Origin: Pseudohongiellaceae bacterium
Lineage (GTDB): Bacteria; Pseudomonadota; Gammaproteobacteria; Pseudomonadales; Pseudohongiellaceae
NCBI GenBank assembly: GCA_047617585.1
Contig: JBLGBD010000001.1
Span: 53,454 to 117,453, forward strand
Length of the DNA: 64,000 bases
Direction: 5' to 3'
Shown here: positions 2,227-60,000 of the stretch, one piece after another
Position numbering within the stretch: the stretch's first letter is position 1
How the letters are laid out: each line of letters begins with the position of its first letter
Program-made: the position numbers and the translations under genes
Notes under the pieces: model-generated
Told to the model about the DNA's origin: nothing
The model's database searches: none
The model's input: the letters and a program-made list of their open reading frames with translations, nothing else

Positions 2227-2577
2227 GCAAGCTGTTGAGTTTTGGGAACCGGGAATTTGTTAGCTTAAGCGATAGTTGTTTGCAGCCTTTTGCCCCTACT
2301 TGCGACCAGACCATAGCTTGCCATAGCGGCACGTTTGTGGCTGTTAAAATTTCCTATTGAGTGAGGCTTGAGTAGCGCTTCAGGCAAATAATTAGTTTGC
2401 AGGTGGATGCGTTAAAGGTTTGTTGGCTTACTGCCGATTGTCATAGTAAGACTGCTGATATCTTGTTCTAGAGTCAGTGTAAATCCACCACCTAGCAGGA
2501 GGATATTTCAGAGTTACATCATCACTTTTTGGTTCCTACCCCATTGACGCATTGATTTTCAAGAGGTCTCATTGCCC

Positions 2578-4002
2578 ATGAGCGAAGTTAAACTTGTCGA
2601 AACAAATCAGCAGCCAATCGATCAGCACTCTCAAGCAGATCCTATCTTTTATGTCTTGGACACTAACGTCCTCATCCACGACCCAACCTCCATACACAGT
2701 TTCGACGAACATCATGTCGTCATACCGATTACGGTGCTTGAAGAGTTAGACTCGTTAAAGAACGGGAGACAATCGATCGCCGCAGATTGTCGCCAAGCGA
2801 TTCGCGAACTTGATCGCATTTTAGGTCGAGCCAGCCCAACAGAAGTAGAAAATGGCGTAAGAATAGCCGCGATGAATGGTACTGAATCCAGCGGTATAAT
2901 TTCAGTACTAATGACGGAAATCCCTGAGAACTTAATCAAGCTTCCAACCCATCTGAACGACAACAAGATCCTGAATGATGTTGGCTATCTCAAACATCGG
3001 TACCCAAATAGAAAAGTAGTGCTCGTTACTAAGGACATCAATGTCAGGTTAAAAGCTCGAGGCTGTGGTATTGACTCTCAGGACTACCATACCGATCAAC
3101 TGCTTAGCGATATTGAACAGCTGAACACTGGCTACATAAAATTTGAAGGCAGCTTTTGGGATCAAGTCGAGAATGTAAAGACGGAGCAGATCAGTGGTCA
3201 AACCTACCATACTGTCGCCAAGGCGCTGTTTTCACAAGCGGTATACCCGAATCAATTTGTTTATGATGAAGCTGAGTTTTTAGGTCGCATTGTCTCGATC
3301 GACGGTGAGTTTCTTACGCTGCTTCATCTTGATTTGGCAAATTTATTGCAAGCTGAAACTTGGGGCTTAAAACCAAGGGATGTACATCAAGTGATGGCGA
3401 TGAATCTACTTATGGATCCTGATATTCACCTGGTAAATCTAACCGGCGCTGCCGGTTCTGGAAAAACTATATTGGCACTGGCCGCGGCCATTGAGCAGAC
3501 AGTACCTAACAAAATTTACAGGCGCATAATCGTGACCAGAAGCACTCAAGGTTTAGACGAGGATATTGGTTTTCTACCAGGTACTGAAGCGGAAAAAATG
3601 GAACCTTGGCTTGGGGCCATAACAGACAATCTTGAAGCACTGCACTGGGAAGATGACAACTGTAGCAGCAGTGTCGAGTATGTCCTGGATAAAGTGCCGC
3701 TAATGTTTAAGTCGCTCAACTACATTCGCGGGCGTTCATTTCAGAGTAGCTTAATTATAATTGATGAGTCACAGAATCTTACACCCCATCAAATAAAGAC
3801 GATAGTCACAAGAGCCGGAAACGGATCTAAAGTAATTTGCCTCGGTAACCTGGCACAAATTGACACGCCGTATTTAACGCCAATAAGCTCTGGCCTAACT
3901 TACCTTACCGAGCGATTTAAGTCTTTCGAAGGTGGGGGTAACGTGTTGCTGCAGGGAGTTCCTAGATCGGCATTGGCGCGGTTTGCTGAAGAGCACTTGT
4001 AA
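2578..4002 (+). CDS. PhoH2-type protein: N-terminal PIN domain fused to a PhoH-like ATPase
   Basis: PIN-like start (FYVLDTNVLIHDP...VVIPITVLEELD), a Walker A (LTGAAGSGKT) and a Walker B (LIIIDESQN). ATG at 2578 is preferred over the in-frame TTG at 2572. Confidence 0.85.
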   Translation: MSEVKLVETNQQPIDQHSQADPIFYVLDTNVLIHDPTSIHSFDEHHVVIPITVLEELDSLKNGRQSIAADCRQAIRELDRILGRASPTEVENGVRIAAMNGTESSGIISVLMTEIPENLIKLPTHLNDNKILNDVGYLKHRYPNRKVVLVTKDINVRLKARGCGIDSQDYHTDQLLSDIEQLNTGYIKFEGSFWDQVENVKTEQISGQTYHTVAKALFSQAVYPNQFVYDEAEFLGRIVSIDGEFLTLLHLDLANLLQAETWGLKPRDVHQVMAMNLLMDPDIHLVNLTGAAGSGKTILALAAAIEQTVPNKIYRRIIVTRSTQGLDEDIGFLPGTEAEKMEPWLGAITDNLEALHWEDDNCSSSVEYVLDKVPLMFKSLNYIRGRSFQSSLIIIDESQNLTPHQIKTIVTRAGNGSKVICLGNLAQIDTPYLTPISSGLTYLTERFKSFEGGGNVLLQGVPRSALARFAEEHL

Positions 4003-4998: not shown

Positions 4999-5853
4999 CT
5001 AGAGACCAAACAGTCTTCGCTTTAACGACTTCTCTCTATCTATTGAGTCGGTATCGTCAATCGCTCGGTGTATGTGAGTTTTAGTGATGGTGTAGTCGCC
5101 AAGTCCAAATGCAACTATCATTGCCTTGTGACTTAAAATATTGATCAATCGGGGGACACCTTTACTGGCAACAAAAAGCGCATCGATCGCTGTGTCGGAG
5201 AATAAGCAATTGCCGTTATAACCAGCCTTCGTTAAGCGAAAATCCACATAGGCTTTGGCGCTCGCTCTATCCAGAGGAGGCAAAGTATAGGTAAAGCTGA
5301 CGCTTGCGCTGAGCTGGCGAAGCAGAGGCTGGTTTAGCAACGTGCTTAACTCGGGTTGGCCAAACAAGATAATCTGTAAGCTGGACCCTTTATCGGTCAG
5401 CGTGGTCAGCAGATACAGTGCCGCAAGGGTTTCTTCAGGCATGGCTTGAGCTTCGTCTATGAACAATACCACCTTACGGCTTCTTTCATGTTCATAAACT
5501 AATGCATTGGATATGAGTCTAATCTGCTGTTTGTAGCTCATCGATTCATCGTGCGGCAGTTGCAGCTCTTCGGCAAGCATATGCATGATGCCTTGCTCGC
5601 TATGCACAGGGTGAGGGATGTAGGCTGTAAGATAACGATCTTGGAAAGGGTCCAAAGCAAGAAGTATTTTGCGGCAGAGCAGCGTTTTTCCGGTTCCGAC
5701 TTCGCCGCTGATGATTGCAAATTTCTCTTCACCCTTTAATGCCTGCAAAAGCTGTTCGAACGCCCTTTGGTGCGCTGGCAACTTAAAAAAGTATCGCGTG
5801 TTTGGTGTTAGTGAAAAAGGATGCTGGCTGAGGCCGAAATGGGTTAAATACAT
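4999..5853 (-). CDS. ExeA/MshM-like AAA ATPase, short form without a peptidoglycan-binding domain
   Basis: N-terminus MYLTHFGLSQHPFSLTPNTRYFF is typical of ExeA/MshM. It also has a Walker A (GEVGTGKT) and a Walker B (VLFIDEAQ). Confidence 0.75.
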   Translation of the reverse strand: MYLTHFGLSQHPFSLTPNTRYFFKLPAHQRAFEQLLQALKGEEKFAIISGEVGTGKTLLCRKILLALDPFQDRYLTAYIPHPVHSEQGIMHMLAEELQLPHDESMSYKQQIRLISNALVYEHERSRKVVLFIDEAQAMPEETLAALYLLTTLTDKGSSLQIILFGQPELSTLLNQPLLRQLSASVSFTYTLPPLDRASAKAYVDFRLTKAGYNGNCLFSDTAIDALFVASKGVPRLINILSHKAMIVAFGLGDYTITKTHIHRAIDDTDSIDREKSLKRRLFGL

Positions 5854-5892: not shown

Positions 5893-8800
5893 CTAATTAA
5901 TAGCAGCCTTTTTCAAGATCTCTTTTGTCTTTGATAGCTCTGATTCTAGTGAGACGCGAGTTTCCGGTTCAATCGTTGGGTTGGAAAGAACGAAATAGGC
6001 CGTCCTTACTACTTCTCGCCAACGGGGTATTTTTGGTAATTGTTCTAGTCTTAAGTAGCGATCAAAAGTACGAGTACGTAGTCGCCCATCGTCTATGCTA
6101 ACAGCCCAAATATTGCTTTCCTCGGCCAGGTCAATTTTGGATTTCTGAGTGGTAACTTCCCAGGTATGCAGTGCCGAGCGCATCAAGGTCACTAATTGTT
6201 GGCGGTACTCACCCTCATCACTGACGTTTGGCAGTTCGGTATCGATGTACTGAACCAGTTCTTCGATACCGGAAAGTTTGTCGAGCATAGCGGGATGATT
6301 GATAAGCTCGTCCGGGGACATAACACTTAAGCGGGTGCCGATGCGGCGAATGTTTTGCTGAGCCTGTCCAAGCATGCTAACTAGTTCAACAGTATCAATG
6401 ACGGTAGCTGATTTTAGCGCCGCGTCCAACACAGTAGAATCTTCAAGAAATAGTACGCCAACTCCTTCTTCTGCTCCGAACAGCTTTAATTTGCTTGAGA
6501 AAGTGATGCGAGTGCTGCTGGTCTTGCTCGCATTGTTATAGGGATAAACAACTTCGATATCGAATCCTAATGAAACAAGGCCGCTATTGCCTGGATTCGT
6601 TTGCATTGGCTCTTCGCCTAGCTCCCAGTTCATAATCGCATCGCGAATCGCCTCGTTATTGTCGGAATCAGAAAACAAAGAGTTAACACTTTTCTTAAGC
6701 AAAGACTGCTTATCTGTCCCAAGAAGCTCGGCGGCTCTCTGGTTCAGGCTGAATATTTTTCCTGGCAGTTCAAAGGCAATAAAGCCCACTTGGATAGTTT
6801 CTAAAACCTGTTGTAGGCGAAATCGTGATGAGCGCAATTCGCTATCGGCTTCTACATAGTTTTCGATTTGAGAGCGGAGCTTCGCATTGTCTTCACTGAT
6901 GCGGTGAAGCAGCGAGAGCCTGAGTTGGTTCTGCACTCTCGATTTTAGCTCTTCGCTGTGGAAGGGTTTTGCCAAATAGTCGTTGGCGCCAGTTTTAAAT
7001 CCCTGCGTTAAATCTTCGAGGTGATTTTGGGCTGTGACAAGAATTACAGGAAGCTCAATTTGGTTATATTTCTGCCTTATTTTTTGGCACACTTCGTAGC
7101 CGTTTAAACCAGGCATCATTAAGTCAAGCAGCACTAGGTCTGGTTTCGATTCTTCGATCGAGGTGAGGGCGTCTAAGCCGTTGGAACACTTTACGACTGT
7201 GTATTCTTCCAGCTGCTGCCCCATGACTACCCGGTTTATTTCATCATCATCAACCACAAGTATGGTGGTTTCCTGCTCGCTGCGAAGTGTCGGAGTTTCG
7301 TTGGTTTGATTGGCTTTTTGCAGGTAGTCAGCGCGGCGAATCATTTGGCGCTGGATTGTAGTGTTTTTCACCGCCCGAGTCTGGTCGAGGGAAATTCTAA
7401 GATCAAAGCTAAATTCGGATCCGAGATCGAGTTCGCTGCTTAGTCTGAGCTTGCTCTTGTGCATCTCGACCATGCGTTTGGCGAGAGGCAAACCTAGGCC
7501 AATTCCTGATGCGTTCATTTGCTGAGAGGGAAGCTTTTCAAAGGTCTTGAAGACAGTCTCGTGATCAGTTTTATGAATGCCGATGCCTGTATCTCTCACT
7601 GAAACTGTGATGTTGTAATCTGAGCTAGGTTTTGCAGAAATCACAACTTCGCCGGCATAGGTGAACTTGATGGCATTGGAAGTAAGGTTGACTAGAACCT
7701 GCTGCAGCCTATCCTCGTCGCCAGAAACCATAGGCAAGTCCCGGTCGATATCGCTTCGTAGGATGACTTTCTTGTTCCCGAGCAAAGGGTTGCAAACGGC
7801 TATGACTAAGGTAACTAGGCTGTGTAGATCTACCGGTTTAAATTTCACATAAGCCGCAGATTCTTTAGCACTGGAGAAGTCTAGAAGGTCATTGACAAGC
7901 TTGGTAAGTCGGTCGCCGCTGGTTTGGATAAGCTCTAAATTCTGGGTAATTAGCTCAACGTTTTGAGTGTCTTTATCAAACTCAATAAGAGCTGCTTTGG
8001 CGAGGCCATTGATACCGAAAAGAGGTGTTCGTAGTTCATGGGATACGTTAGCTAGCAAATCGTCCTTAATCTTTTCTGAGCGTATGAAATTATTTATTGC
8101 CAGACGTTGAGCGTCTTCTTTTTCTTGTTTGATTTGGTTGTAACGGAACGACAGGCTTAGGGATAAAAGTAGCGCTTGTGCAATGAGACCCAAATTATAG
8201 GCATTGTTGGTGAACTGGTTGTTTGGAAATGCCGGCCACAGCTGCAGTAACATAAGAATAATGACCCCGGCGAAAAAAACGCCGATTGCAGCCATATGCA
8301 CTATCGCTGTTACATTGCCACGACGTATCGCATCGATATTGGTGTAGAAAGCAACGGGTATTGCCGCTATAAGAAGGATAACGAAAAGAAATTGAAATAT
8401 TTTCTCGTTAGGCGCAAAAGTTAAACCGATGACTACTACGAAACCTGCAAGTAATCCCAGCACGAGCTTGTCGATTCTGGGATTGTGCTCCCAAAGACGC
8501 AGCAAGGATCGCTGAAATAACAGCGCTGTAATTACCAATGCCGGGTAGATGTTGCGCTCGGCCATATCAACCAGCCAATAGCTGCTGTTGATCTCCTCGA
8601 GTAAATACCGCAGGTGTTTAGAATCCGAAAATATAAACAGGGCTTGGGCAGAGATTGCTAACACATAGTAGATGTAACTAGACTCGCGTATGGTGACGAA
8701 CAAAAATAAGTTATAGAAAATCATAGCCAGCAAGATGCCGTACTGCAGGCCTAAGAACAGATCGGCGCTGGCGCTCTTAGCGCTGAACTGGTCAGGTTGC

Positions 8801-9372
8801 CAAAGGTTGATTGGCAGCATTAGAGGTCTTGCGCTGGTGACCTGAAGATAAAAGTTATTGCCGAAGCTTTCATCGACGACAAGGGCGAAGCCACGATTCA
8901 GGGTTTTGATTTCGCGGTCGGAGGTCAGTGTTCCAAGGACATAACTTGAAGAGCTTGCATTGGCATCATTAACACTGAAGACTTGGATCCCGCCTCTGAA
9001 AAGTCCAGCGACTAATTTAGGTGGACCAAATTCTAAAACCCTAGTGGCACCTGGCTCTAATTCGCTCCAGTCTAGCTTGAACCGTATCCAGTAAGCTGAA
9101 CTTGTAATGCCAAAGTGAAGAATGTCGCGATTATTGGGAAGAAAGTTGACTGCGAACTGCGAAGCCAAGACATCGTCTAATGTTAGAGATTCCGATTTAT
9201 CTTCATAGTACTCAACCGCGTTGGCAATCGATTGAGGTTCATCAGAATCCAGGACAGTGATAGACTGGCCCGATACTAATGAAGCAGTGGCGAGTAAAAA
9301 CACCGCCAGAATGACTTCAGTGGCAAGTTTGAGGGTCATGGGCAATTTGCTATGGCGTTCTTGCTGAAGCAT
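5893..9372 (-). CDS. Hybrid sensor histidine kinase/response regulator with a 7TMR-DISM sensor module and a long C-terminal extension after the receiver domain
   Basis: Signal or TM segment, a periplasmic DISMED2-like domain (SSAYWIRFKLDW) and about 7 TM helices. H-box is NVSHELRTPL and the HATPase part has DTGIGI and GIGLGLPLAKRMV. The receiver domain has ILVVDDDEINR, DLVLLDLMMPG and AKPF. About 400 further residues include a PAS-like stretch. An alternative start is M12 (9339). Confidence 0.85.
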   Translation of the reverse strand: MLQQERHSKLPMTLKLATEVILAVFLLATASLVSGQSITVLDSDEPQSIANAVEYYEDKSESLTLDDVLASQFAVNFLPNNRDILHFGITSSAYWIRFKLDWSELEPGATRVLEFGPPKLVAGLFRGGIQVFSVNDANASSSSYVLGTLTSDREIKTLNRGFALVVDESFGNNFYLQVTSARPLMLPINLWQPDQFSAKSASADLFLGLQYGILLAMIFYNLFLFVTIRESSYIYYVLAISAQALFIFSDSKHLRYLLEEINSSYWLVDMAERNIYPALVITALLFQRSLLRLWEHNPRIDKLVLGLLAGFVVVIGLTFAPNEKIFQFLFVILLIAAIPVAFYTNIDAIRRGNVTAIVHMAAIGVFFAGVIILMLLQLWPAFPNNQFTNNAYNLGLIAQALLLSLSLSFRYNQIKQEKEDAQRLAINNFIRSEKIKDDLLANVSHELRTPLFGINGLAKAALIEFDKDTQNVELITQNLELIQTSGDRLTKLVNDLLDFSSAKESAAYVKFKPVDLHSLVTLVIAVCNPLLGNKKVILRSDIDRDLPMVSGDEDRLQQVLVNLTSNAIKFTYAGEVVISAKPSSDYNITVSVRDTGIGIHKTDHETVFKTFEKLPSQQMNASGIGLGLPLAKRMVEMHKSKLRLSSELDLGSEFSFDLRISLDQTRAVKNTTIQRQMIRRADYLQKANQTNETPTLRSEQETTILVVDDDEINRVVMGQQLEEYTVVKCSNGLDALTSIEESKPDLVLLDLMMPGLNGYEVCQKIRQKYNQIELPVILVTAQNHLEDLTQGFKTGANDYLAKPFHSEELKSRVQNQLRLSLLHRISEDNAKLRSQIENYVEADSELRSSRFRLQQVLETIQVGFIAFELPGKIFSLNQRAAELLGTDKQSLLKKSVNSLFSDSDNNEAIRDAIMNWELGEEPMQTNPGNSGLVSLGFDIEVVYPYNNASKTSSTRITFSSKLKLFGAEEGVGVLFLEDSTVLDAALKSATVIDTVELVSMLGQAQQNIRRIGTRLSVMSPDELINHPAMLDKLSGIEELVQYIDTELPNVSDEGEYRQQLVTLMRSALHTWEVTTQKSKIDLAEESNIWAVSIDDGRLRTRTFDRYLRLEQLPKIPRWREVVRTAYFVLSNPTIEPETRVSLESELSKTKEILKKAAIN

Positions 9373-9601: not shown

Positions 9602-10537
9602 ATGAAAATTTTGGCCCATAATCTGCGATATTTTTGGTCCGCTTGGCTGATTCTTTGGTCCCTTGCTTGTGCGGGCGCAGAAGAAACCAGTCAATATCAA
9701 AACTGGCTAGAGCTGGCAGCTGCTGATCAGACCTTTGCCGATAGGTCCGCTGCTATTGGCAGAACTAGAGCATTTTTAGAATTTCTCGGCGAAGGTTCGG
9801 TGGTGTTCCGAGATGGTCCGGTAGATGCGTTGGAGCTCTACAGTTCAGAAGCATTTCAGGCTGGTGCGAGCGAAATCAGTTGGAAAGCTCACTATATCGA
9901 CGTCTCGCGAGCAGGGGATCTAGGATTATCTGCTGGGCCTTTGACGATTATCAATCCTTCGGGCGACTCAGACCAAAATACATTTGGTCACTTAATTTCA
10001 ATATGGCGCAAAGCAGCAGGTAAGTGGCAGCTGATGTCTGATATTGTAGTTAGTATCCCGGGCTATTTGAGTCTAGATGTGGAGCCAAATTTTTCCGACA
10101 CCGTGCCTGTTCTTGATGAAACGGCTCACCCAGTTTTGGCCATGGACCAAAATAATACCCTGCAAAGTCTTATTGATGCTGACAATTTGTTTGGTCGATC
10201 CATCAATTTTCGCGGAGGGCAGCGTGCGTTGCTGCGCTATGGCTTGGAGAATTCGAGGGTCTATTTGCCAGGCATGGCGCCCGCTGTGGGAGCAGAGTCG
10301 GCAAGCTCGGTTTACGGCGCGTTTTTGGACAACCAGTTATCTACAACTAATCCTGTAAGCCTAACCTTCATAGGGGGTTATCTTTCGCAGTCTAAGGAAA
10401 TGGGATACACCTACGGCACTATGAAGACTGATACCGATGATGGCGAGGTTGGCTTTGTGACCGACTACCTTCGCTTGTGGCGTTTTTCAGAATTCAATGA
10501 ATGGCGTATCGCAGTTGAGGTACTTAGCCCGCACTGA
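9602..10537 (+). CDS. Secreted protein with two NTF2/SnoaL-like (DUF4440-like) halves
   Basis: It has a signal peptide. Each half ends in a ...W.K..G.W.. type motif (ISIWRKAAGKWQLMSD and YLRLWRFSEFNEWRIAVE). The fold assignment is inferred only. Confidence 0.45.
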   Translation: MKILAHNLRYFWSAWLILWSLACAGAEETSQYQNWLELAAADQTFADRSAAIGRTRAFLEFLGEGSVVFRDGPVDALELYSSEAFQAGASEISWKAHYIDVSRAGDLGLSAGPLTIINPSGDSDQNTFGHLISIWRKAAGKWQLMSDIVVSIPGYLSLDVEPNFSDTVPVLDETAHPVLAMDQNNTLQSLIDADNLFGRSINFRGGQRALLRYGLENSRVYLPGMAPAVGAESASSVYGAFLDNQLSTTNPVSLTFIGGYLSQSKEMGYTYGTMKTDTDDGEVGFVTDYLRLWRFSEFNEWRIAVEVLSPH

Positions 10538-51368: not shown

Positions 51369-52304
51369 TTACTCAGAGACCTCGACTGTGATGTAATCAT
51401 CGTGATAGAGCCCGCCATCGTCCGCTCGACCCCAAAGGATATAAGTGCCAGGCTGATCAAAGGTAGCAGTCACCTCGTATAATCCATCTTCAGGTATCTC
51501 AGGCGGCAGCCAAAGAGCTCCCCACGGCGAATTCGCCGAAGTTCGGGTGTCTTCCCAAGGTTTAGGGAACGCCGGCTCAAACGTGACATGCCCTGGGCCA
51601 CGGTATTTGTTCCAAGACAAAAACAAGCCATTAACCTTGCCCACAGTGATTCGAGTTGGCGGCCTAAACATACGGGCTTTCGCGCTGCGCTCGGTTAGAG
51701 TGGATTCTCGCCTCGGTTTAGGTAGGCCATCGTCCAAAACTTGGGTCACAAATTCTAAGGCTTCGCCCACCCTTGCAGTGCGGATTTTATCCCCCTGAAC
51801 AGTGACCTGTGGGGAGGTATTAGAGCGGGATTCTGGGCTTGAAGTGCCTGCGCCCAAAGATCCGGTTTCTGATGCAATAACTATGTTGTCTACCTGATAG
51901 TCAGCGTTGAGAGTGGCATAGGCTTTGCGCTCGACTCCATTGACATTCAGCGTCCATACCAGTTCTCTATCCCCCCAATCAGCCGGGACTACGACTTCAA
52001 AGTTGAAGCGGTTGCGGCGTGGCAAGAAATGAGTAGGCTGGCCTTTATCGGCATCGCCTGGTGAGAAATAGTTGTTTTCACCGACATCGACATCCGGTTG
52101 TTCCAGCCAGTTTTCATTCATATAGCCGAACATGAAGCTGAATGAACCGTCATCATTTGGGCGCCAACCTTCATAGGCTGGTTCCACATGTTGTCCGGTT
52201 TGGTAAGTCTGTGCCAGGAGAGGTGAGGCGAGTACTAATAAAATTGAGCTTAATGCCCAAGCCAAGGCGGCTTGGGCATTAGTCAGTCGGGTCATAAGAT
52301 TCAT
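51369..52304 (-). CDS. Hypothetical secreted protein, downstream partner of the heme-c/monooxygenase-like gene
   Basis: Signal peptide (LLVLASPLLAQ). It starts 9 nt after the upstream stop. I recognise no motif. Confidence 0.5.
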   Translation of the reverse strand: MNLMTRLTNAQAALAWALSSILLVLASPLLAQTYQTGQHVEPAYEGWRPNDDGSFSFMFGYMNENWLEQPDVDVGENNYFSPGDADKGQPTHFLPRRNRFNFEVVVPADWGDRELVWTLNVNGVERKAYATLNADYQVDNIVIASETGSLGAGTSSPESRSNTSPQVTVQGDKIRTARVGEALEFVTQVLDDGLPKPRRESTLTERSAKARMFRPPTRITVGKVNGLFLSWNKYRGPGHVTFEPAFPKPWEDTRTSANSPWGALWLPPEIPEDGLYEVTATFDQPGTYILWGRADDGGLYHDDYITVEVSE

Positions 52305-52313
52305 CTATAACCC

Positions 52314-53762
52314 TTAATCGTTTGCTGCCACATCGTTGCCAGCAGTATCTTCGCTTTCTTCAGCTACAGGGGCCACTAAAGGCGCGAGGCACAGCGGGCA
52401 GCCAATGACGTGATCATTGGGACCAAGATCAAGTACTTGGCGACGCTCTTCCATGGCTTCCAAAAACTGCTCGTCAGTCATGGTGACGCGAATTCCCAAA
52501 TCAATAAACATATTAGTCACTGAGCGGTTGCCCGAACCTTGCCAGTTACGTGGGTCAGGCACGTTAGGGTTGCTGTCAGTGTTGTTCATGTATCCAGTGA
52601 TGTGCAGGATTGTGCCTTTAGGCAGAAGCGGTGCAGCATGATCTTCATAGGGGTAGCCGCGAACCCAGTTGTGGTCATAACCAACGCAGGAAAGGGTTTC
52701 AATGGTGTAGCCCCAGATAGCCTCTAGACACATACGCTCGCCAGGGGCGTGTAAGTGTGGCTCGAAGGTGATTACTTTAGTGTGCTGATTCAGCACCGTA
52801 TAGGCATGGAGTTCTTGGTCTTTCTTGTTGCCTTGGATAGAGATATCCACGCCATTTCCGAGCCCAATAAAGGCGTTTTTGTACTTAGGTTCATAGTCTT
52901 TTTCATGAAACACAAAGCCCACTTCTAAGTGGCCGGTGGTATCGCGACCATTGGAATGCAGGTGAACAGAATCGGAAACGATCCATGAACCTGCTTTTAA
53001 CAATCGGCCTGCATCCTCATCGAAAATATCTGCATTGCGGCCCACTTCATGCACTGGCCACGGCAATGAAATTTGTCCTGCTGCACGCTCACCGTTTTCA
53101 TCTAATTCGGCTGTGCCCCATATCATATGGTGAAATATGTAGCGACCACCAACTGTGTCGCGACCAGTACCAGCTTGGTTGTTGACGTCATTAACTTCAA
53201 CAACTTCAACTGATTTGACATAGCGATCTTCAGTTAATCCGGTTGGGATGTAATCAATCTCGCCCCACCAGTCTGGCGTGCCAGCAAGCTTAGTAATGTC
53301 ATTCATCACAACCACCAGATCAGGCTGCCCTGCATGCCACTTTTGGCTGTCATCGAACGCCAGTGCTTCAGGTGCATCAGCAACATCACCCTTAGGGGTG
53401 CCTGAGCGAGCCCAGCTAGAGATTGCGGCGAGATCTGCATCGCTTAACGAAGGGTCGTCTTTATAGTCTTGAATACCGATGTTCTTTTCCATATACCAAG
53501 GTGGCATGGCACCAGCACGGTCTCTAAGGCCTGTTTTGTACTCAATCAAACCCGCATAAGGAGCCACCTGATCGTAAGTAACCAATGGCATAGGTCCGGC
53601 ACCGCCTTCTCTATGACAACCCTGACAGCTGCGCTGTAAAATCGGTTCGATGTCTTTGTGAAATGTAACTTCGCCTGACTGGGCTGAAGCTAGGCCTGAC
53701 AGCGTGCTTGCTGCGGCGAATAAAGCGCTGCTTAATAAAACTCTTGCAGAAACAATGCGCAT
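52314..53762 (-). CDS. Periplasmic c-type heme protein fused to a domain with copper monooxygenase (PHM/DBH)-like His/Met motifs
   Basis: The ATG at 53762 has an AGGAG RBS 10 nt upstream, and a signal peptide follows. The CQGCH heme-binding site is encoded at 53613-53627, followed by ...AGPMPL...MPPW. Downstream motifs are FHHMIW, SVHLHSNGR (compare PHM VHTHHLGK), EPHLHAPG and ERMCLE (compare PHM EMCNLY). Confidence 0.6.
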   Translation of the reverse strand: MRIVSARVLLSSALFAAASTLSGLASAQSGEVTFHKDIEPILQRSCQGCHREGGAGPMPLVTYDQVAPYAGLIEYKTGLRDRAGAMPPWYMEKNIGIQDYKDDPSLSDADLAAISSWARSGTPKGDVADAPEALAFDDSQKWHAGQPDLVVVMNDITKLAGTPDWWGEIDYIPTGLTEDRYVKSVEVVEVNDVNNQAGTGRDTVGGRYIFHHMIWGTAELDENGERAAGQISLPWPVHEVGRNADIFDEDAGRLLKAGSWIVSDSVHLHSNGRDTTGHLEVGFVFHEKDYEPKYKNAFIGLGNGVDISIQGNKKDQELHAYTVLNQHTKVITFEPHLHAPGERMCLEAIWGYTIETLSCVGYDHNWVRGYPYEDHAAPLLPKGTILHITGYMNNTDSNPNVPDPRNWQGSGNRSVTNMFIDLGIRVTMTDEQFLEAMEERRQVLDLGPNDHVIGCPLCLAPLVAPVAEESEDTAGNDVAAND

Positions 53763-53997
53763 ATCTACGCGACTCCTCATAACTGGATGGTTGGTTCTTA
53801 TCAATGATAGACAACTTTTGATCTGGCGGGACTTTAGCATTTCTACGCTAGAAATTGAATGGAATCAGCGTGGTTTTCAGATGAAATACCAACTTTTACC
53901 GATGATTTTTTGAGAATTACCATCGGCTCGGGGCGATCACCCTACAAATCCGAGTTTTGAGGGGCAAAGAGGGTTGCAAAGGCGCCGTAGCTTGTGT

Positions 53998-54768
53998 TTA
54001 TTCAGTGCCTTTAAGGATCGCCCAGAGATTGCTTGAGCCTAAAAGTGAAACGAAGATTACCAGCAGCCCTAAGCTAAACCATTGTAGTGAATAGGATAAG
54101 TTTTGATTCACATTGACGTTAACCGCAGGCCAGTGCCGCACCAAGGTGCCGGCTTGGTCCTCGGTGAGACGCACTTCGAAAGGAAACAGTGGTTCATCGA
54201 GTATCTGCGAGATTATATCGATTTCCAGGGTACGAATGCGTAAAGGCCACACTGAAGGGTCTATTTCGCTGTCGATGACCCGATTATTGCCATCTGGCAC
54301 ATGAATTTGTGCGCTGACCTGCACCTCACCCTCGACTTCACGCAGGTCTGGCGATACCCCAGCTGGCAAAATTGCGGTAGTCCAGCCGCGGTGAACAAGG
54401 ACAATTTGGCCATTAGAATTGAGCCGCAGTGGGGTTATAACCCCGTAGCCAATTTGGCCCCCAAAAAACTCGGCAACCACTAAAATAGTGCGATCATTGA
54501 GATAGTTGCCCGTTAGCAATACGTGGCGATTTTGCAATTCAGGGTTAGACGGATGCAAGTGGCCGAGCGGAATATTTTCAATGGGCCCAGCGCTGTCGGT
54601 GAGGCTAGCTTCTAACTCTCTTTGCGATTCAACCTTTTCCGCCGCTCGGTCTAATTGCCACAGGCCCAGCCGCGCAAACGTCAATGCTGTCATCAGCACA
54701 CAAGTGACGATTAGCCAGTTTATTTTTATGTGAAAAGCACCCAACGAGAAGGTTTGGCGTGGCTGCAT
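53998..54768 (-). CDS. SURF1-family protein (cytochrome oxidase biogenesis type)
   Basis: The N-terminal TM carries ARLGLWQLDRAAEK and the C-terminal TM carries YSLQWFSLGLLVIF. The length and two-TM topology are typical of SURF1/Shy1. Confidence 0.8.
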   Translation of the reverse strand: MQPRQTFSLGAFHIKINWLIVTCVLMTALTFARLGLWQLDRAAEKVESQRELEASLTDSAGPIENIPLGHLHPSNPELQNRHVLLTGNYLNDRTILVVAEFFGGQIGYGVITPLRLNSNGQIVLVHRGWTTAILPAGVSPDLREVEGEVQVSAQIHVPDGNNRVIDSEIDPSVWPLRIRTLEIDIISQILDEPLFPFEVRLTEDQAGTLVRHWPAVNVNVNQNLSYSLQWFSLGLLVIFVSLLGSSNLWAILKGTE

Positions 54769-54889
54769 AGGGTAAAAGGCCTTCAGTGATTAACGCCGCT
54801 GAGACTAATGGAGTCGAAACTCGAATACAACCTGATCGACGCTAAATAATGACAACGTCAGCCCGTTGTCTGAGCTGTTAAACCACAGC

Positions 54890-55396
54890 CTAGCACAACC
54901 AACACCAATGATAGGGCGGGCGATAGTAGGTGATTAACCGGCCGCAGACTATGACCAAGCTCCAGCTCACAAGCGATACTCCCGCTATGGCTTTGGCGGA
55001 GCCCAAGACCTGCTCAGAAGCCTCTGTGGCGCGAACGCCTCTGGCGCAGAGAGTATAAAAGCACAGCATGTTAAGACCAGCGATGAGCATGAAGCCTAGC
55101 TTAGACAGGAAGGCTGGGTTAAACAGGTATTGATCGGGCGCGCTAACTACAAACATTGTGCCGGTAACTATATTGAGACCGAAGCCTGCAACCCCGAAGG
55201 GGACGAGCCTGTGTAAATCAGAATAGTTAACTCCTCTCGCCACTCCCAGCATTCGAAGGTCGAATACACCGACTGTGCCTAGCAGTAGACACAGTCCAAC
55301 AAAGTGCAAAGATTCGATAATAGGCCAACCCCAGGCCGAATTCATAAATCCTAGAATGCCGGTTTGCAGCGCAAAATTGTATAAGGTATCGAGCAT
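54890..55396 (-). CDS. Integral membrane protein, family unknown
   Basis: About 5 TM helices and the motif IIESLHFVGLCLLLGTVGVFDLRMLG. The start is moved to M29 (55396) to remove a 76-nt overlap with the upstream ORF. Confidence 0.5.
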   Translation of the reverse strand: MLDTLYNFALQTGILGFMNSAWGWPIIESLHFVGLCLLLGTVGVFDLRMLGVARGVNYSDLHRLVPFGVAGFGLNIVTGTMFVVSAPDQYLFNPAFLSKLGFMLIAGLNMLCFYTLCARGVRATEASEQVLGSAKAIAGVSLVSWSLVIVCGRLITYYRPPYHWCWLC

Positions 55397-55404
55397 TGGT
55401 TGAC

Positions 55405-55896
55405 CTAAAAGTAGCGTGACGCGAGCAAGACACTGTGGGTATAGGCTAAGAACCGACCAGCGAATAGGGTGATCAGCCACAAGGCAAGCGCTGCCGCGGC
55501 AAGCTTTTTGAATAGGGCCATCTTATTTTTATCTGCCGCAGCTCTCGTGAGGCTGCGTTGAAAAACTCCGGCGATGATCAAGGCAGCAGTCAAGGCCGCT
55601 AATTTGAGGTAAAACACTGGGTTAGTGAGAGCCTTAGCGGGATAGGCAATGAGCAAAGCGGTGCCTGAAAGAAAAATAACCAGCACACCCCACCAGTGTA
55701 GGGGATAGAAACGGGTAATAGCTGCCGAAAAATTGTTTGGAGCGGCTATCAATAACTGCAGGCACACTGCGACGTTAATACCCACGACTAAGGCCATGGC
55801 CAGAGCATGGATACTGAGGGAGGAGAAAAACGCGACTCCCGATTCCCTTAACAGTATGCTTATGGCGGTTTCTTCGAATCTGGCAAGGTAGAACAA
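55405..55896 (-). CDS. Integral membrane protein, distant paralog of 54890-55396
   Basis: About 4 TM helices. The N-terminal region LRESGVAFFSSLSIHALAMALVVG parallels IIESLHFVGLCLLLG of its neighbour, and the C-terminal G-R-(F/L)-(L/I) tails are similar. Confidence 0.5.
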   Translation of the reverse strand: MFYLARFEETAISILLRESGVAFFSSLSIHALAMALVVGINVAVCLQLLIAAPNNFSAAITRFYPLHWWGVLVIFLSGTALLIAYPAKALTNPVFYLKLAALTAALIIAGVFQRSLTRAAADKNKMALFKKLAAAALALWLITLFAGRFLAYTHSVLLASRYF

Positions 55897-56143
55897 CCGG
55901 GTTTCCTTTTAGATAGAGCTAATTGCTTGGCACTGGCGCCGAAGTGTCTCCTTGGTTAGCGCAGCTGTCAACAAGCGAGCCACTGACACTATTTCGGCTA
56001 ACGGCGTTATCAAAGCAGGGTGCGTTGCTACTGGGTTATGCGCTAGAGTTAGCCCAGATTGCGAATTAAGGCTTTGGCTGGCAGGCTATAATTGTCCGGC
56101 CGCATTTGTGTGATTTATTTGCTCATCAAGTAGGGTTCAATTC

Positions 56144-57370
56144 ATGGAAAGTATGATTAATCTCTCAGCTGTAACTTGGGCCTTAGTTGGCTTGATCGTG
56201 CTGCTGGGCGTCTATTTTCATGGTCCTAGCTACTCGATTCAAACAGTCAAAAATGCCCCGTCGATTCTTACAAGTTTCGGCATATTTGGGACATTTCTCG
56301 GCATCGCGTTTGGCTTAATGGGGTTTAATAGCGCGGACATTGAGGCCAGCGTGCCTTTGATGATCGACGGTTTGGGTGTCGCGGTTTGGTCTTCTATTTC
56401 AGGCATTCTTGCCGCGTTGAGCATACGTCTTCGGTATGCCATTAGCAGTGTGCGCAGCGCGAAACAGGCAGGCAGCAAGCTGGCTACGGTAAATGACCTC
56501 AACACATCGATTTTGGTACTAAATGATAATGTGGCGATGTTAAGGCAGGAGAACCTGGAGCAATCGACAAGTCTGTTGGCCGCCAACGAAAACTATCAGC
56601 AGCAAATGGTTGCGGCGAATACCGATGCCTTAACGACTGCGCTGAGCGGGATCATGCAAGATTTCAACAGCAAAATTGAAGTGCAATACGGTGAAAATTT
56701 CAAAGAGTTTAATGAGTCGTTGGGCAAGCTGTTGGCTTGGCAGCAAAGCTATTCCCAGCAGCTAAACGCGATGCTTGAAATGCATGACTCAAGCTTGAAG
56801 GTGATAGATAAAGCCGGTCAGTCATACCAAGAGATGATCGTCCATTCGCAAGAATTTTCAAAAATCGCAGGGTCTCTCGGCGAATTGTTGGCCGGTCTGG
56901 AGTCACAGACGCGCAACTTAGAGGGCTATCTTTCAGGTCTATCAGGCTTGGTTGGGCAAGCATCAGAAGGCCTACCTGCGTTGGGCGACTATGTTTCTGA
57001 ACTAACGGTTAAATTAAGCGAAAGCATAGAGCAAAACAATAAGAGCCTCACTCAGGTTCTTACCCAGGCATCCAAAGATATTACTAGTACCGTTGATGAG
57101 GTGAATCGGGGTTTGGCAGCATCTGTAGAGTCGGCGCACAGCGGTCTGGCTGAGCATGTAGCGGGGATGTCGAGTAAAACCCAGAAACAAATGGAAATTT
57201 TGGACAAGTCCATGGAGAAGCAGCTTAACCTCGCATTGCAAACCTTTGGCTATCAGTTAACCGCACTGTCAGAAAAGTTTGTCAATGACTATATTCCACT
57301 TACCGATCGCTTAAGAGACTTGGTTACGCTTGCTGAGCAGACTAAGGTTCACAAAGAGAAGGTGCGCTAG
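56144..57370 (+). CDS. MotA/ExbB-family proton-channel-like protein with a ~300-aa C-terminal helical tail (ZorA-like)
   Basis: Three TM helices lie in the first ~100 aa. The last two carry the MotA_ExbB core pattern (SFGIFGTFLGIAFGL and GLGVAVWSSISGILAAL). The rest is Leu/Gln/Ser/Glu-rich and helical (…LGELLAGLESQTRNLEGYLSGLSGLVGQ…). Confidence 0.65.
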   Translation: MESMINLSAVTWALVGLIVLLGVYFHGPSYSIQTVKNAPSILTSFGIFGTFLGIAFGLMGFNSADIEASVPLMIDGLGVAVWSSISGILAALSIRLRYAISSVRSAKQAGSKLATVNDLNTSILVLNDNVAMLRQENLEQSTSLLAANENYQQQMVAANTDALTTALSGIMQDFNSKIEVQYGENFKEFNESLGKLLAWQQSYSQQLNAMLEMHDSSLKVIDKAGQSYQEMIVHSQEFSKIAGSLGELLAGLESQTRNLEGYLSGLSGLVGQASEGLPALGDYVSELTVKLSESIEQNNKSLTQVLTQASKDITSTVDEVNRGLAASVESAHSGLAEHVAGMSSKTQKQMEILDKSMEKQLNLALQTFGYQLTALSEKFVNDYIPLTDRLRDLVTLAEQTKVHKEKVR

Positions 57371-58077
57371 TGACTGTGCTTGAGAACGAATTAGAGCAGG
57401 AGTCCGAAGAGCATTGGATTGCGGTAAGCGATTTGATGAGCGGCCTGATGATGCTATTTTTGCTAATTGCGGTTTTGTATATTGTGATTGTTGCGCGCCA
57501 AAAAGAAGAGATCGAACAAATAGTTCTACTCTATGAAGATTTGCGGGAAGAGCTATACCAAGATTTGCTGACCGAGTTTGAGCTCGATTTGCCGAGATGG
57601 GGTGCGCAGTTGAGCGAAGACCTAAGGCTTCGGTTTACCAATACCCAGCTTTTGTTTGAAGAAGGCGAATCTTATCTGCGGCCCGAATTTAGCGCAATTC
57701 TTGCTGATTTTTTCCCGCGTTATATGCGAATTTTAGCATCTGATACATACCGTGAAGATGTGTTGGAGGTTCGGATTGAAGGGCATACCTCAAGCTCTTG
57801 GTCCCAAGCGCTGGGCAGTGACGATGCCTATCTGCGCAACATGGCGCTGTCACAAGAGCGCACTAGGTCGACCTTAGGCACTATCCTGTCGCTTGCTGAA
57901 GTAGCGGACAATAAACAGTGGCTGCGCCAACGCTTAACAGCAAATGGCCTATCATCATCCCAGCTGATTGTTGGACCGGGGGGAGAAGAGGATCCCCAGC
58001 TTTCAAGAAGAGTCGAGTTTGTCGTTGTTACCGATGCAGAAACGAGACTGGCCACTATTATGCAAGAATTAAAGTAG
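57370..58077 (+). CDS. MotB/OmpA-like peptidoglycan-binding partner (ZorB-like)
   Basis: The GTG start overlaps the upstream stop (TAGTG). The N-terminal TM carries a conserved Asp (HWIAVSDLMSGLMMLFLLIAV). The C-terminal OmpA-like domain has VRIEGHTSS, NMALSQERTRS and SRRVEFVV. Confidence 0.7.
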   Translation: MTVLENELEQESEEHWIAVSDLMSGLMMLFLLIAVLYIVIVARQKEEIEQIVLLYEDLREELYQDLLTEFELDLPRWGAQLSEDLRLRFTNTQLLFEEGESYLRPEFSAILADFFPRYMRILASDTYREDVLEVRIEGHTSSSWSQALGSDDAYLRNMALSQERTRSTLGTILSLAEVADNKQWLRQRLTANGLSSSQLIVGPGGEEDPQLSRRVEFVVVTDAETRLATIMQELK

Positions 58078-58086
58078 CTCAGAGCA

Positions 58087-58677
58087 ATGAAGCTTGTAGA
58101 TTTCACAGAGTTTGCACCCTTTAACGAGCTGAGGCGCAAAGTAGGCACAACAACATTAGGTTACTTTGAGCTGTTTGATCCACAATTTCATTTGACTGGG
58201 TTAGAGCGCTCAGAGCTTGAGTTGAGCGGCCGTCTTGTAACCATTGATGGGATCAAAATTCTTCCCGATAAAACCCTGGCCGTTAAAAATAGCCGAGTGC
58301 TTGTGTACTACCCAGATGAGAATTGGTATAGAGACAACCGCGAATTCCCCACCTATCATCTTGCCTATTGCTCGCAGCTAGACGGGCTGGCGAAAGCCAT
58401 GCCCGATGCCCAGTGGTTAGCGACGACGAGGCTTGCGGAAGATTATGATTTAGTAAAGCTTAGAACCAGTGGCCAAGTGACACTGGTGTCCCATGGCTTT
58501 GCCGTGTGTAAGCATTGCTTGCACACACTGCGCTATAAAAACTTCGATGAATTTAGAAATCGCCGGCGAGGTTACAGCGAAACCGTACTGAAACAGTTTC
58601 GCCTAGGTGACTTTTTTAAGCTATATCAGCAATACCCACTCAGTTTTAAAGGCCGACCTAACACTGAAGATGGCTAG
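58087..58677 (+). CDS. Uncharacterised 196-aa cytoplasmic protein, third gene of the MotAB-like module, with a possible zinc-binding motif
   Basis: It starts 9 nt after the ZorB-like stop and has no TM helix or signal peptide. The motif is H91-x3-C95 ... C141-x2-C144-x-H146 (YHLAYC ... VCKHCLH). I recognise no nuclease, helicase or NTPase motif. Confidence 0.55.
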   Translation: MKLVDFTEFAPFNELRRKVGTTTLGYFELFDPQFHLTGLERSELELSGRLVTIDGIKILPDKTLAVKNSRVLVYYPDENWYRDNREFPTYHLAYCSQLDGLAKAMPDAQWLATTRLAEDYDLVKLRTSGQVTLVSHGFAVCKHCLHTLRYKNFDEFRNRRRGYSETVLKQFRLGDFFKLYQQYPLSFKGRPNTEDG

Positions 58678-58680
58678 GTT

Positions 58681-60000
58681 TTATTGGTCTAATTCGTTCA
58701 GCAGTGGCTCGGTGACGCCGTTAACTCCTGCGAGTGCCAGCATGACAAGAAAGGCTGTCTGCGGTCCAACATGAGACTCGGTTGGCACAAACCACTCGTC
58801 GGGTGAATGGGCGCCGCCGCCATTGCCGCCACCGGCTATAGTGATCGCGGGTATGCCCAGTGACATAGGCACGTTGGAATCCGTGCTGGATATGCCTAAG
58901 TCGCGTAGCTCAATGCCAAGGGCATCGAATGCCAAGGCCGTCACTTGAACGATTGGGCTGTCGGTTACTGTAGCGCCTACCGGACGATCTCCAATCAAGT
59001 TGAAATCTACTGTAATCTCGCCGTTGTTCCAACGGGCATTTTCTTCGGCAACCGCCTCCAGTGCGGCGGCTTTAATCTGGCTTTCAAGCCTGGCTAATTC
59101 GTCTGCGTCGTTGGAGCGCATGTCCAGAGCGAATATGGCATCGGCGGCGATGGAATTGACCGAGGTTCCGCCTTCGACTGTACCTACGGTATAGGTTGTT
59201 TTTGGCAGTGTCGGTGTTTCAATGTCGCCAATCTTGGCTATCGCTCTTCCCATGGCATGAATGGCACTAGCCAGACCAAAGGCACCAAAGGAATGTCCGC
59301 CAGGGCCTTTGAAGTGAAATTCGAAACGTCTGCTGCCCGTGCCGCCTGTGGTAATCCGCTGCAGGCGGACACCATCAATTGAAACGAAACCATCAATTTC
59401 TGGGTGGTCTCTAAAAATAGCCTTTATACCGCGCAGATCGCCTCGGCCTTCCTCACCCACGTTGCCGGCAAAGATAATATCGCCAATTGTTTCAAGACCG
59501 CTTTGATTTAAGGCATCGATCACGGAAAGCAGGGCGGCGAGGCCGCGTGTATCATCACCAATGCCGGGAGCATAATATCTGCCGTCGCGCAGCTGCACGG
59601 TTGTGTCTACTCCTTCTGGAAAGACGGTATCTAAGTGCGCCGCAATAAGAAAAGTTGGCCCCGAGCCGGTGCCTTTGCGAATGCCAATGGCATTGCCTTC
59701 GGTGTCAATGTAGGCGTCGACCAAGCCGCGCGCTTGCATCTGCTCTAAGAAATAAGCGGCTCTAACCTGTTCTTTAAACGGGGGTGCCGGAATTTCCGTA
59801 AGACGAAACTGTTCATCGATATAGGCAGGCTCTTGGGCTTCGATTAAATCTAGCATGGCCTTAACTGTGCTGTGCTCACTCAGAGTCGTGAAACTACTTG
59901 CTATGGAATCATCAATAGGAACAATCGACTGCTGGGCGCCAAGGCTTGCTGAATAGACCAATAAGATAGCCGCGAGTGGCAATTTGTTGAGTGAAAACAT
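58681..60000 (-). CDS. Secreted M20-family metallopeptidase
   Basis: Signal peptide plus the metal-ligand motifs AAHLDTVFPEG, GIGDDTRG and NVGEEGRGDLRG. Confidence 0.8.
   Translation of the reverse strand: MFSLNKLPLAAILLVYSASLGAQQSIVPIDDSIASSFTTLSEHSTVKAMLDLIEAQEPAYIDEQFRLTEIPAPPFKEQVRAAYFLEQMQARGLVDAYIDTEGNAIGIRKGTGSGPTFLIAAHLDTVFPEGVDTTVQLRDGRYYAPGIGDDTRGLAALLSVIDALNQSGLETIGDIIFAGNVGEEGRGDLRGIKAIFRDHPEIDGFVSIDGVRLQRITTGGTGSRRFEFHFKGPGGHSFGAFGLASAIHAMGRAIAKIGDIETPTLPKTTYTVGTVEGGTSVNSIAADAIFALDMRSNDADELARLESQIKAAALEAVAEENARWNNGEITVDFNLIGDRPVGATVTDSPIVQVTALAFDALGIELRDLGISSTDSNVPMSLGIPAITIAGGGNGGGAHSPDEWFVPTESHVGPQTAFLVMLALAGVNGVTEPLLNELDQ

Follow-up and report, generated by a model that had tools for sequence, protein, structure and literature searches.

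In Escherichia coli, Zorya type II systems encode ZorA2, ZorB2 and ZorE, in this order, from genes that overlap or are closely spaced (ATCC 8739; EDL933 z5894–z5896). ZorA and ZorB assemble into a 5:2 motor that is driven by ions and anchored to peptidoglycan; both its tail and its critical aspartate are needed for defense, which the ZorB substitution D24N abolishes, and upon infection ZorAB directs ZorE to the membrane (PMC11890865). ZorE itself begins with a DUF8245 domain at its N terminus, followed by HNHc in the center and, optionally, by a C-terminal extension; His90 in the zinc site of DUF8245, the HNH-adjacent Tyr189, and His226 and Lys231 in the HNH domain are each essential, in that the mutants H90A, Y189F, H226A and K231A abolish Zorya II defense, and an AlphaFold 3 (AF3) model places the DUF8245 domain beside a DNA duplex (PMC13192584, a 2026 preprint). 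Current models of Zorya II hence take the HNH nickase of ZorE as the effector. Here we analyze a three-gene operon from an uncultured Pseudohongiella, contained in a window of 64 kb (the whole stretch of DNA under study), which very probably is a Zorya II-family module whose ZorE homolog is reduced to DUF8245 and carries no HNH nuclease domain.

The operon comprises three co-directional genes on the forward strand: the zorA-like gene 1 at 56144–57370 (408 amino acids, type II ZorA), the zorB-like gene 2 at 57370–58077 (235 amino acids), and the zorE-like gene 3 at 58087–58677 (196 amino acids, DUF8245 domain only, without HNH nuclease domain). The GTG start codon of gene 2 lies on the stop codon of gene 1 (TAGTG, 57368–57372, in the context CGC TAG TG), and a 9-nt spacer, ctcagagca, separates the stop codon of gene 2 from the ATG of gene 3. 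A preliminary description of this DNA, made from its letters alone, had considered a Zorya-like module with a new effector or a stator-driven envelope sensor; its gene coordinates are exact to the base, and both the overlap and the gap are read in the sequence as it gave them. Gene order is the same as in the E. coli system.

Genes 1 and 2 were identified using PADLOC models and PDB sequences rather than Pfam. Gene 1 matches the ZorA2 model PDLC00637 at 1.9e-87, residues 5–400 aligning with profile positions 11–419 of 420, and gene 2 matches the ZorB2 model PDLC00641 over its full length at 1.2e-85. The closest solved structure is the type II ZorA5B2 complex of Sulfuricurvum kujiense (PDB 8VVI, determined by cryo-electron microscopy), with which both proteins align end to end: gene 1 with 8vvi_F at 7.5e-42, in three stretches over residues 14–399, and gene 2 with 8vvi_A at 1.3e-48 over residues 7–232. 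Three hydrophobic segments in the first ~100 residues of gene 1 make up a MotA/ExbB-type core, which is followed by a helical cytoplasmic tail. Because the tail starts near residue 100, like that of S. kujiense (100–378), it is ~300 residues long, and these residues align with the ZorA rod of 8vvi_F, so that the core-plus-tail architecture of the preliminary description is borne out by hydrophobic segments and alignment alike. The ZorA of the window and that of S. kujiense belong to the same short-rod class, PDLC00637 being the best model for both, whereas E. coli ZorA (550 residues) has a longer tail and PDLC00638 as its best model.

In gene 2, an N-terminal transmembrane (TM) helix precedes a C-terminal OmpA-like peptidoglycan-binding domain at approximately residues 115–235 (57712–58074). 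Asp21 (codon 57430–57432), in the segment WIAVSDLMSG, corresponds to D21 in 8vvi_A and to D24 in E. coli ZorB2 and is the predicted ion-coupling aspartate of the 5:2 motor; this assignment, like that of the peptidoglycan-binding domain, had been made beforehand and holds in both alignments. The peptidoglycan-binding motifs RIEGHTSS, LSQERTR and SRRVEF are common to gene 2, E. coli ZorB2 and S. kujiense ZorB; E. coli ZorB2, also of 235 residues, is 44% identical to gene 2, with EGHTS and SRRV kept. As judged by these alignments, the products of genes 1 and 2 are homologous over their full length to the two proteins of the type II ZorA5B2 motor, and the coupling aspartate and the peptidoglycan-binding motifs are intact.

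Gene 3 matches the PADLOC ZorE2 model PDLC00643 at 8.9e-28, only over profile positions 3–185 of 282. From 56 long family members (HNH-bearing ZorEs), one hidden Markov model (HMM) was built for the DUF8245 part and another for the HNH part: the DUF8245-part HMM finds gene 3 at 1.2e-38, and the HNH-part HMM gives no match at E <= 10 with --max, in agreement with the earlier statement that gene 3 shows no HNH motif. Aligned to the 367-residue EDL933 ZorE, which has DUF8245, HNHc and the C-terminal extension, gene 3 ends before Y189, H226 and K231, and six-frame translation of 57900–59400 reveals no HNH remnant on the forward strand. The PADLOC models for ZorC, ZorD, ZorF and ZorG do not match gene 3, the local Pfam copy gives no match, and neither Pfam nor NCBIfam returns a catalytic domain; the neighboring genes carry housekeeping Pfam tags only. 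Among the 120 close homologs of gene 3 listed, all are 172–219 residues long, all have the precomputed tag PF26739 (DUF8245), and none (0/120) is matched by the HNH-part HMM. In the source databases, homologs of the window genes are named “hypothetical protein”.

According to the profile comparisons, gene 3 is not a new protein: it is homologous to the DUF8245 domain at the N terminus of ZorE and stands alone. Of the preliminary reading, the Zorya-like character stands, whereas gene 3 as an unknown new effector does not; nor does the module fall outside the known Zorya types, since all three genes match type II models in the PADLOC search that had been suggested. From the new-effector idea it survives that the effector chemistry differs from the published HNH nicking. 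As judged by the profile scores, the operon is not a new system, and is instead a Zorya II relative that lacks the HNH domain by which the published effector is defined and stays under all three NCBIfam equivalog cut-offs (ZorA2, 104 versus 700 bits; ZorB2, 201 versus 400; ZorE, 28 versus 600).

The sequence of gene 3 displays the hallmarks of DUF8245, namely an H-x3-C ... C-x2-C zinc site and an N-terminal MKLxDF...FN..LR motif. The predicted H-C-C-C site is formed by His91 (codon 58357–58359), Cys95 (58369–58371) and a CxxC half consisting of Cys141 (58507–58509) and Cys144 (58516–58518), which correspond in alignment to H90, C94, C136 and C139 of E. coli ZorE. All four are invariant in 40 orthologs, in 75 diverse short forms, and in an alignment of short and long forms together. 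Beyond the zinc site, D61, K67 and R70 are conserved family-wide in short and long forms, and the short clade has an additional basic segment, R-x-R-x-x-x-Y-S, at residues 157–164. The short proteins end cleanly ~10–25 residues past a conserved YPxYP motif, and 56 columns are invariant among the 40 gene 3 orthologs.

An AlphaFold2 model of gene 3 calculated from 75 diverse sequences is a mixed alpha/beta structure with a predicted local distance difference test (pLDDT) score of 91.2 and a predicted TM-score (pTM) of 0.81; an earlier model from 40 close sequences was poor (pLDDT 67) and had no structural match. Foldseek searches with the better model gave no match at E < 0.1; the top values, 1.3 in PDB and 0.19 in BFVD, are not significant. 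A likeness of DUF8245 to single-stranded DNA-binding proteins (SSB) or the oligonucleotide/oligosaccharide-binding (OB) fold appeared in weak rows with TM-scores of 0.10–0.14 and was discarded as not meaningful. The predicted fold is thus an orphan, and the model gives no structural sign of a nuclease.

The three genes are under strong constraint: against the closest ortholog (one ortholog pair), the ratio of nonsynonymous to synonymous divergence (ω) is 0.067 for gene 1, 0.040 for gene 2 and 0.081 for gene 3, and their synonymous divergence (dS) of 0.42–0.56 equals that of the flanking core genes. ZorA, ZorB and gene 3 are found at the same backbone position in ~40 species-level Pseudohongiellaceae genomes, in the order 311-residue unknown protein, 508-residue protein with a cytochrome-c motif, SURF1, two DUF6644/CopD-like genes, the module, M20 peptidase and DUF1232. 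Gene 3 is 54–95% identical over these genomes; the closest genome locus is 95% identical, and when module and flank identities were compared across loci most species were about equally distant from the window. Reading frames are intact in the ~40 species as well as in the 60-cluster clade described below. Because ω is 0.08 and the chromosomal position is the same in ~40 Pseudohongiellaceae species, the HNH-less state is not decay, and because the absence of HNH is shared across the lineage and under selection, the published effector chemistry cannot apply.

Two ways in which an HNH domain might have been overlooked were considered and rejected. Gene 3 as a truncation or pseudogene of a full ZorE is ruled out by the uniform length of the homologs (120/120 of those listed are 172–219 residues long, without HNH), by the low ω of 0.08, and by the lack of both downstream room and a remnant, the convergent M20 peptidase gene ending 3 nt past the gene 3 stop codon. 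A split ZorE with its HNH part in a separate neighboring gene was likewise discarded: no HNH-like open reading frame (ORF) is present in the flanks and gaps of ~40 orthologous loci, and the Sulfuricurvum locus and 21 metagenome loci, the latter over 7 kb, have none either.

The HNH-less form extends well beyond this family. A profile search of 1.84 billion representatives, with family representatives clustered at 50% identity, yielded 676 DUF8245 relatives, and the best 150 of these comprise 74 complete short HNH-less forms (140–239 residues), 67 HNH-positive forms (at least 240 residues), 6 fragments and 3 odd sequences. A neighbor-joining tree of the DUF8245 region, rooted at its midpoint, divides at the root into a clade of 60 leaves, all short, and 98 further leaves, most of which are HNH-positive, with short singletons scattered among them. 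The all-short clade includes gene 3, Thalassolituus and a Cellvibrionaceae genome and also takes in short forms sampled from both metagenome neighborhood groups. Taken together, the tree, the ω values and the profile counts indicate that the absence of HNH is an ancient and widespread state maintained by purifying selection.

One of the short forms belongs to the genus from which the solved type II structure was obtained. The Sulfuricurvum locus L086:3851–6241 encodes a ZorB 97% identical to 8vvi_A and a ZorA of 378 residues, as in 8vvi_F, followed by a third gene of 172 residues with only a DUF8245 domain (DUF8245 HMM, 8.7e-43; HNH, E = 0.17); six-frame translation of 10.7 kb uncovers no HNH in the locus, and the module is flanked by housekeeping genes for MFS and molybdopterin synthesis. 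Identity to the window is ~41% for ZorB and 23% for the third gene. Since that third gene is DUF8245-only, the type II ZorAB of 8VVI very probably comes from an HNH-less system, the locus of S. kujiense DSM 16994 being deduced from this 97%-identical metagenome relative and not read directly; the functional work in the 8VVI paper was carried out with the HNH-positive E. coli ATCC 8739 system (PMC11890865). The Sulfuricurvum short form is placed among HNH-positive forms in the tree, and the nearest relatives of its ZorB carry longer ZorEs (Campylobacter, 249 residues; Pectobacterium, 291 residues), which together suggest that HNH loss probably happened more than once.

Short DUF8245 genes are tightly coupled to the motor genes. 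At every locus with flanks available the short gene is directly 3′ of ZorB, accompanied by ZorA where the contig reaches; besides Pseudohongiellaceae, the loci examined were from Thalassolituus (four), Cellvibrionaceae, 20 metagenome contigs and Sulfuricurvum. The co-occurrence of gene 3 homologs with a ZorAB pair, considered in the preliminary description, is therefore found at all flanked loci; the neighbors of the short forms are housekeeping genes. These recurrent neighbors (BolA, TrhO-like rhodanese, acyltransferase, oxaloacetate decarboxylase with TRAP transporter genes, acyl-CoA dehydrogenase) are lineage-specific, and a conserved fourth partner across lineages was rejected on that account. 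In 12 Pseudohongiella species, a 177-residue ORF on the same strand starts 3–4 nt past the gene 3 stop codon (loci L011, L018, L019, L020, L022, L027, L028, L033, L038, L039, L040 and L043; e.g., L011:10588–11121); it has no Pfam or PADLOC match, occurs neither in the window nor in other HNH-less lineages, and could be a lineage-specific fourth component.

Five Pseudohongiellaceae lineages have lost ZorA and ZorB by deletion with flanks intact, and in these gene 3 is truncated, fused or interrupted, with remnants around locus position 10000. In L049 and L050, ZorA and most of ZorB are gone and gene 3 contains premature stops; L051 and L053 hold the fusions ZorA(1–93)::gene 3(97–190) and ZorA(2–36)::gene 3(86–188), respectively; and in L059 gene 3 is reduced to residues 142–182. 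The decay is independent in these lineages, and it was observed only where ZorAB is deleted. The joint loss speaks for a dispensable module and against a function of gene 3 in the absence of ZorAB.

Based on these comparisons, we propose that the operon is a Zorya II variant in which a DUF8245 zinc protein acts without an HNH nickase, a reading to which we assign a probability of roughly 0.6. By analogy with E. coli Zorya II, where ZorE is recruited to the membrane and the DUF8245 zinc site is essential, ZorAB would sense a phage-caused perturbation of the envelope or peptidoglycan, and the signal would run down the ZorA rod; the DUF8245 protein would then be recruited to the entry site or activated there, and may engage the incoming DNA. 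As the HNH domain is absent, the DUF8245 protein must act without the nickase, and the outcome would be independent of an in-cis HNH nickase: the DNA could be bound, occluded or captured, or handed to a nuclease encoded elsewhere, e.g., a host recombination nuclease. For the parts of this proposal our confidence differs. An anti-phage role is held to be slightly more likely than not, and an effector step that is non-nucleolytic or proceeds via a nuclease in trans is put forward tentatively, at less than even odds. A wider reading appears doubtful: that the ZorAB motor with stand-alone DUF8245 is a nuclease-free Zorya, ancient, vertically inherited and possibly the ancestral type II, which either stops phages without DNA cutting by its own effector, for instance by capture or occlusion of injected DNA at the motor or with the help of host nucleases, or serves a non-defense role between envelope and DNA, the HNH domain being a lineage-specific add-on.

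Several observations weigh against the proposal. In E. coli, H226A, K231A and Y189F abolish defense (PMC13192584), and by that standard a DUF8245-only protein would be inactive. DNA binding by DUF8245 is not independently supported, because the fold matches nothing in PDB or BFVD, and the gene 3 protein is only mildly basic (isoelectric point 8.7). The module is vertically inherited in a purely housekeeping neighborhood, which is atypical for defense genes. The tree has no bootstraps, and the sampling behind it favors sequences related to the short query profile.

The neighborhood also invites a different reading, which we consider unlikely, i.e., that ZorAB and DUF8245 constitute a domesticated, non-defense device coupling the state of the envelope or peptidoglycan to a DNA or nucleoid process in marine Gammaproteobacteria. 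It would account for the strict synteny between the SURF1/DUF6644-like genes and the M20 peptidase in ~40 species, with gene 3 at 54–95% identity, for a module dS that matches the core genes on either side, for the lack of mobile-element and defense genes in the 64 kb, and for other HNH-less lineages lying amid BolA/TrhO, oxaloacetate decarboxylase/TRAP and acyl-CoA dehydrogenase genes; by contrast, the E. coli system is located in a defense island with Druantia III, ARMADA II and integrase remnants, while the locus in the window is part of the core-genome backbone. However, at least five lineages have deleted the module and kept the flanks, as expected of an accessory function, and the characterized relatives are all defense systems. 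Moreover, HNH-positive relatives are found between housekeeping genes (Pectobacterium, Vitreoscilla) as well as in defense-like contexts (Asticcacaulis, E. coli), so that context alone does not separate defense from other roles. When the Pectobacterium locus was compared with E. coli genomes by blastn, no match was obtained. That the DUF8245 domain is itself catalytic, as a cryptic nuclease or DNA-modifying enzyme, with the short form self-contained and HNH an add-on, we regard as improbable. The conservation of D61, K67, R70 and the zinc ligands in short and long forms, the loss of defense in the H90A mutant of E. coli ZorE (PMC13192584), and the sister relationship of the all-short clade to a mainly HNH-positive clade, which is compatible with a DUF8245-only ancestor, would all fit such an enzyme, but the model with pLDDT 91 has no significant match to a nuclease or any other fold, no Pfam or NCBIfam catalytic domain is matched, and the E. 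coli HNH mutants lose defense despite an intact DUF8245 (PMC13192584).

A decaying Zorya II that has lost its nuclease, and would now be an inactive remnant, is strongly disfavored and very improbable: the domain essential in E. coli is indeed missing and some relatives show outright decay of the module, but ω is 0.04–0.08 for the three genes, the same as for the flanking core genes, the frames are intact in ~40 species and in the 60-cluster clade with clean ends past YPxYP, and decay is confined to lineages in which ZorAB is deleted. Genes 1 and 2 as an orphan stator pair of the flagellar, Ton or Tol type beside an unrelated downstream gene can be regarded as refuted. The pair shares with the 5:2 motors MotAB, ExbBD and TolQR the fold class of the membrane core and the aspartate in the TM helix of the B subunit, and it gives weak matches to the Pfam families which the preliminary description had proposed to search, all below threshold (MotA_ExbB, E = 0.28; MotB_plug, 0.099; OmpA, 3.6e-4, at 21 bits versus a cut-off of 27), and to the NCBIfam MotB models at 1e-5 to 1e-6, far under their cut-offs. 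The ZorA2 and ZorB2 models, however, match 60–80 orders of magnitude better, gene 3 is coupled to the pair at every locus examined, and the Pfam annotations of the called genes reveal no flagellar or motility, Ton, Tol-Pal or gliding genes in the 64-kb window, as had been noted before; unlike these motors, the pair has no rotor, TonB or TolA partner in the window, and the long ZorA rod and the DUF8245 partner are Zorya-specific. Zorya types I (ZorABCD) and III (ZorABFG) have in common with the operon the ZorAB 5:2 motor, the cytoplasmic tail, the peptidoglycan-anchored ZorB and the logic of tail-mediated recruitment, but no homolog of ZorC/D or ZorF/G is adjacent, and of the models for their motor proteins, ZorA1 matches only at ~1e-8 and over the membrane core alone, and ZorB3 at 2.9e-4.

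An HNH-less branch challenges the universality of the HNH nickase as Zorya II effector, as about half of the sampled DUF8245 family clusters are without HNH; the deep clade of 60 clusters is among them, as very probably is the S. kujiense system. Should HNH-less systems defend, DUF8245 would be the functional core of ZorE, as adaptor of the ZorA tail, DNA binder, or both, and the killing step would be outsourced or dispensable, giving a natural separation of sensing and recruitment from nuclease action. Should they not defend, a defense-type motor would have been co-opted for cell biology in abundant marine bacteria. In a full-text search of an incomplete literature library, only a single preprint was seen to name DUF8245, and none of the texts described an HNH-less ZorE. 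For annotation, it is relevant that defense-finder models labeled “HNH endonuclease” catch the short forms through the non-nuclease DUF8245 half alone, and that PADLOC has no dedicated model for the HNH-less form. PDLC00646 (162 positions, “ZorE2 HNH endonuclease”) was considered as a model of short ZorEs and rejected: it matches residues 1–160 of E. coli ZorE at 2.4e-93 (L089:9086–10186) and represents an N-terminal fragment of an E. coli-type ZorE with no HNH region, so that a protein can receive the HNH label from it while lacking the domain.

Upstream of the operon, a perfect TATAAT hexamer was recognized by eye at 56087–56092 on the forward strand, 51 nt 5′ of the zorA ATG, as a candidate −10 element. 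It is a weak promoter candidate because no convincing −35 accompanies it; a consensus promoter scan did not call it, and neither promoter-like sites nor terminators in the region exceeded the shuffled expectation. Only 248 bp separate zorA from its upstream neighbor gene, and the GC content is flat across the locus. In 31 Pseudohongiellaceae loci, a secreted-looking protein of ~277 residues and unknown family is encoded directly 5′ of zorA on the same strand (e.g., L036:7068–7901); it is missing in the clade of the window. In the locus L021:8030–9224, from a Baikal-deep metagenome-assembled genome, ZorA aligns as overlapping pieces (query residues 1–39 and 25–398) in an otherwise intact module, which suggests a frameshift, either real or due to an assembly error.

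The window neighbors were annotated from the Pfam tags of called genes on the source contigs, in which no integrase, transposase or further defense gene was found in the 64 kb. The remaining 61 kb of the window encode pst/phoU/phoR, ppk, feoAB, bacterioferritin, a sigma-70 factor, copCD, a DegP-like protease, and acyl-CoA/lipid metabolism. The 5′ block at 51369–55896 on the reverse strand, syntenic across the family, consists of the 311-residue unknown protein, the 508-residue protein, which has a CxxCH cytochrome-c-type motif and a weak Cytochrome_CBB3 match, SURF1, and the two DUF6644/CopD-like membrane ORFs, which overlap. Several CopC and CopD genes are located near this block, at 42–51 kb, and the block looks like a copper or heme-copper oxidase assembly neighborhood with no evident tie to the Zorya module. 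At the far end of the window lie a PIN_4/PhoH-like ATPase (2572–4002) and, on the reverse strand, an AAA_16/AAA_22 protein (4999–5853) and a 7TMR-DISM hybrid histidine kinase of 1159 residues (5893–9372).

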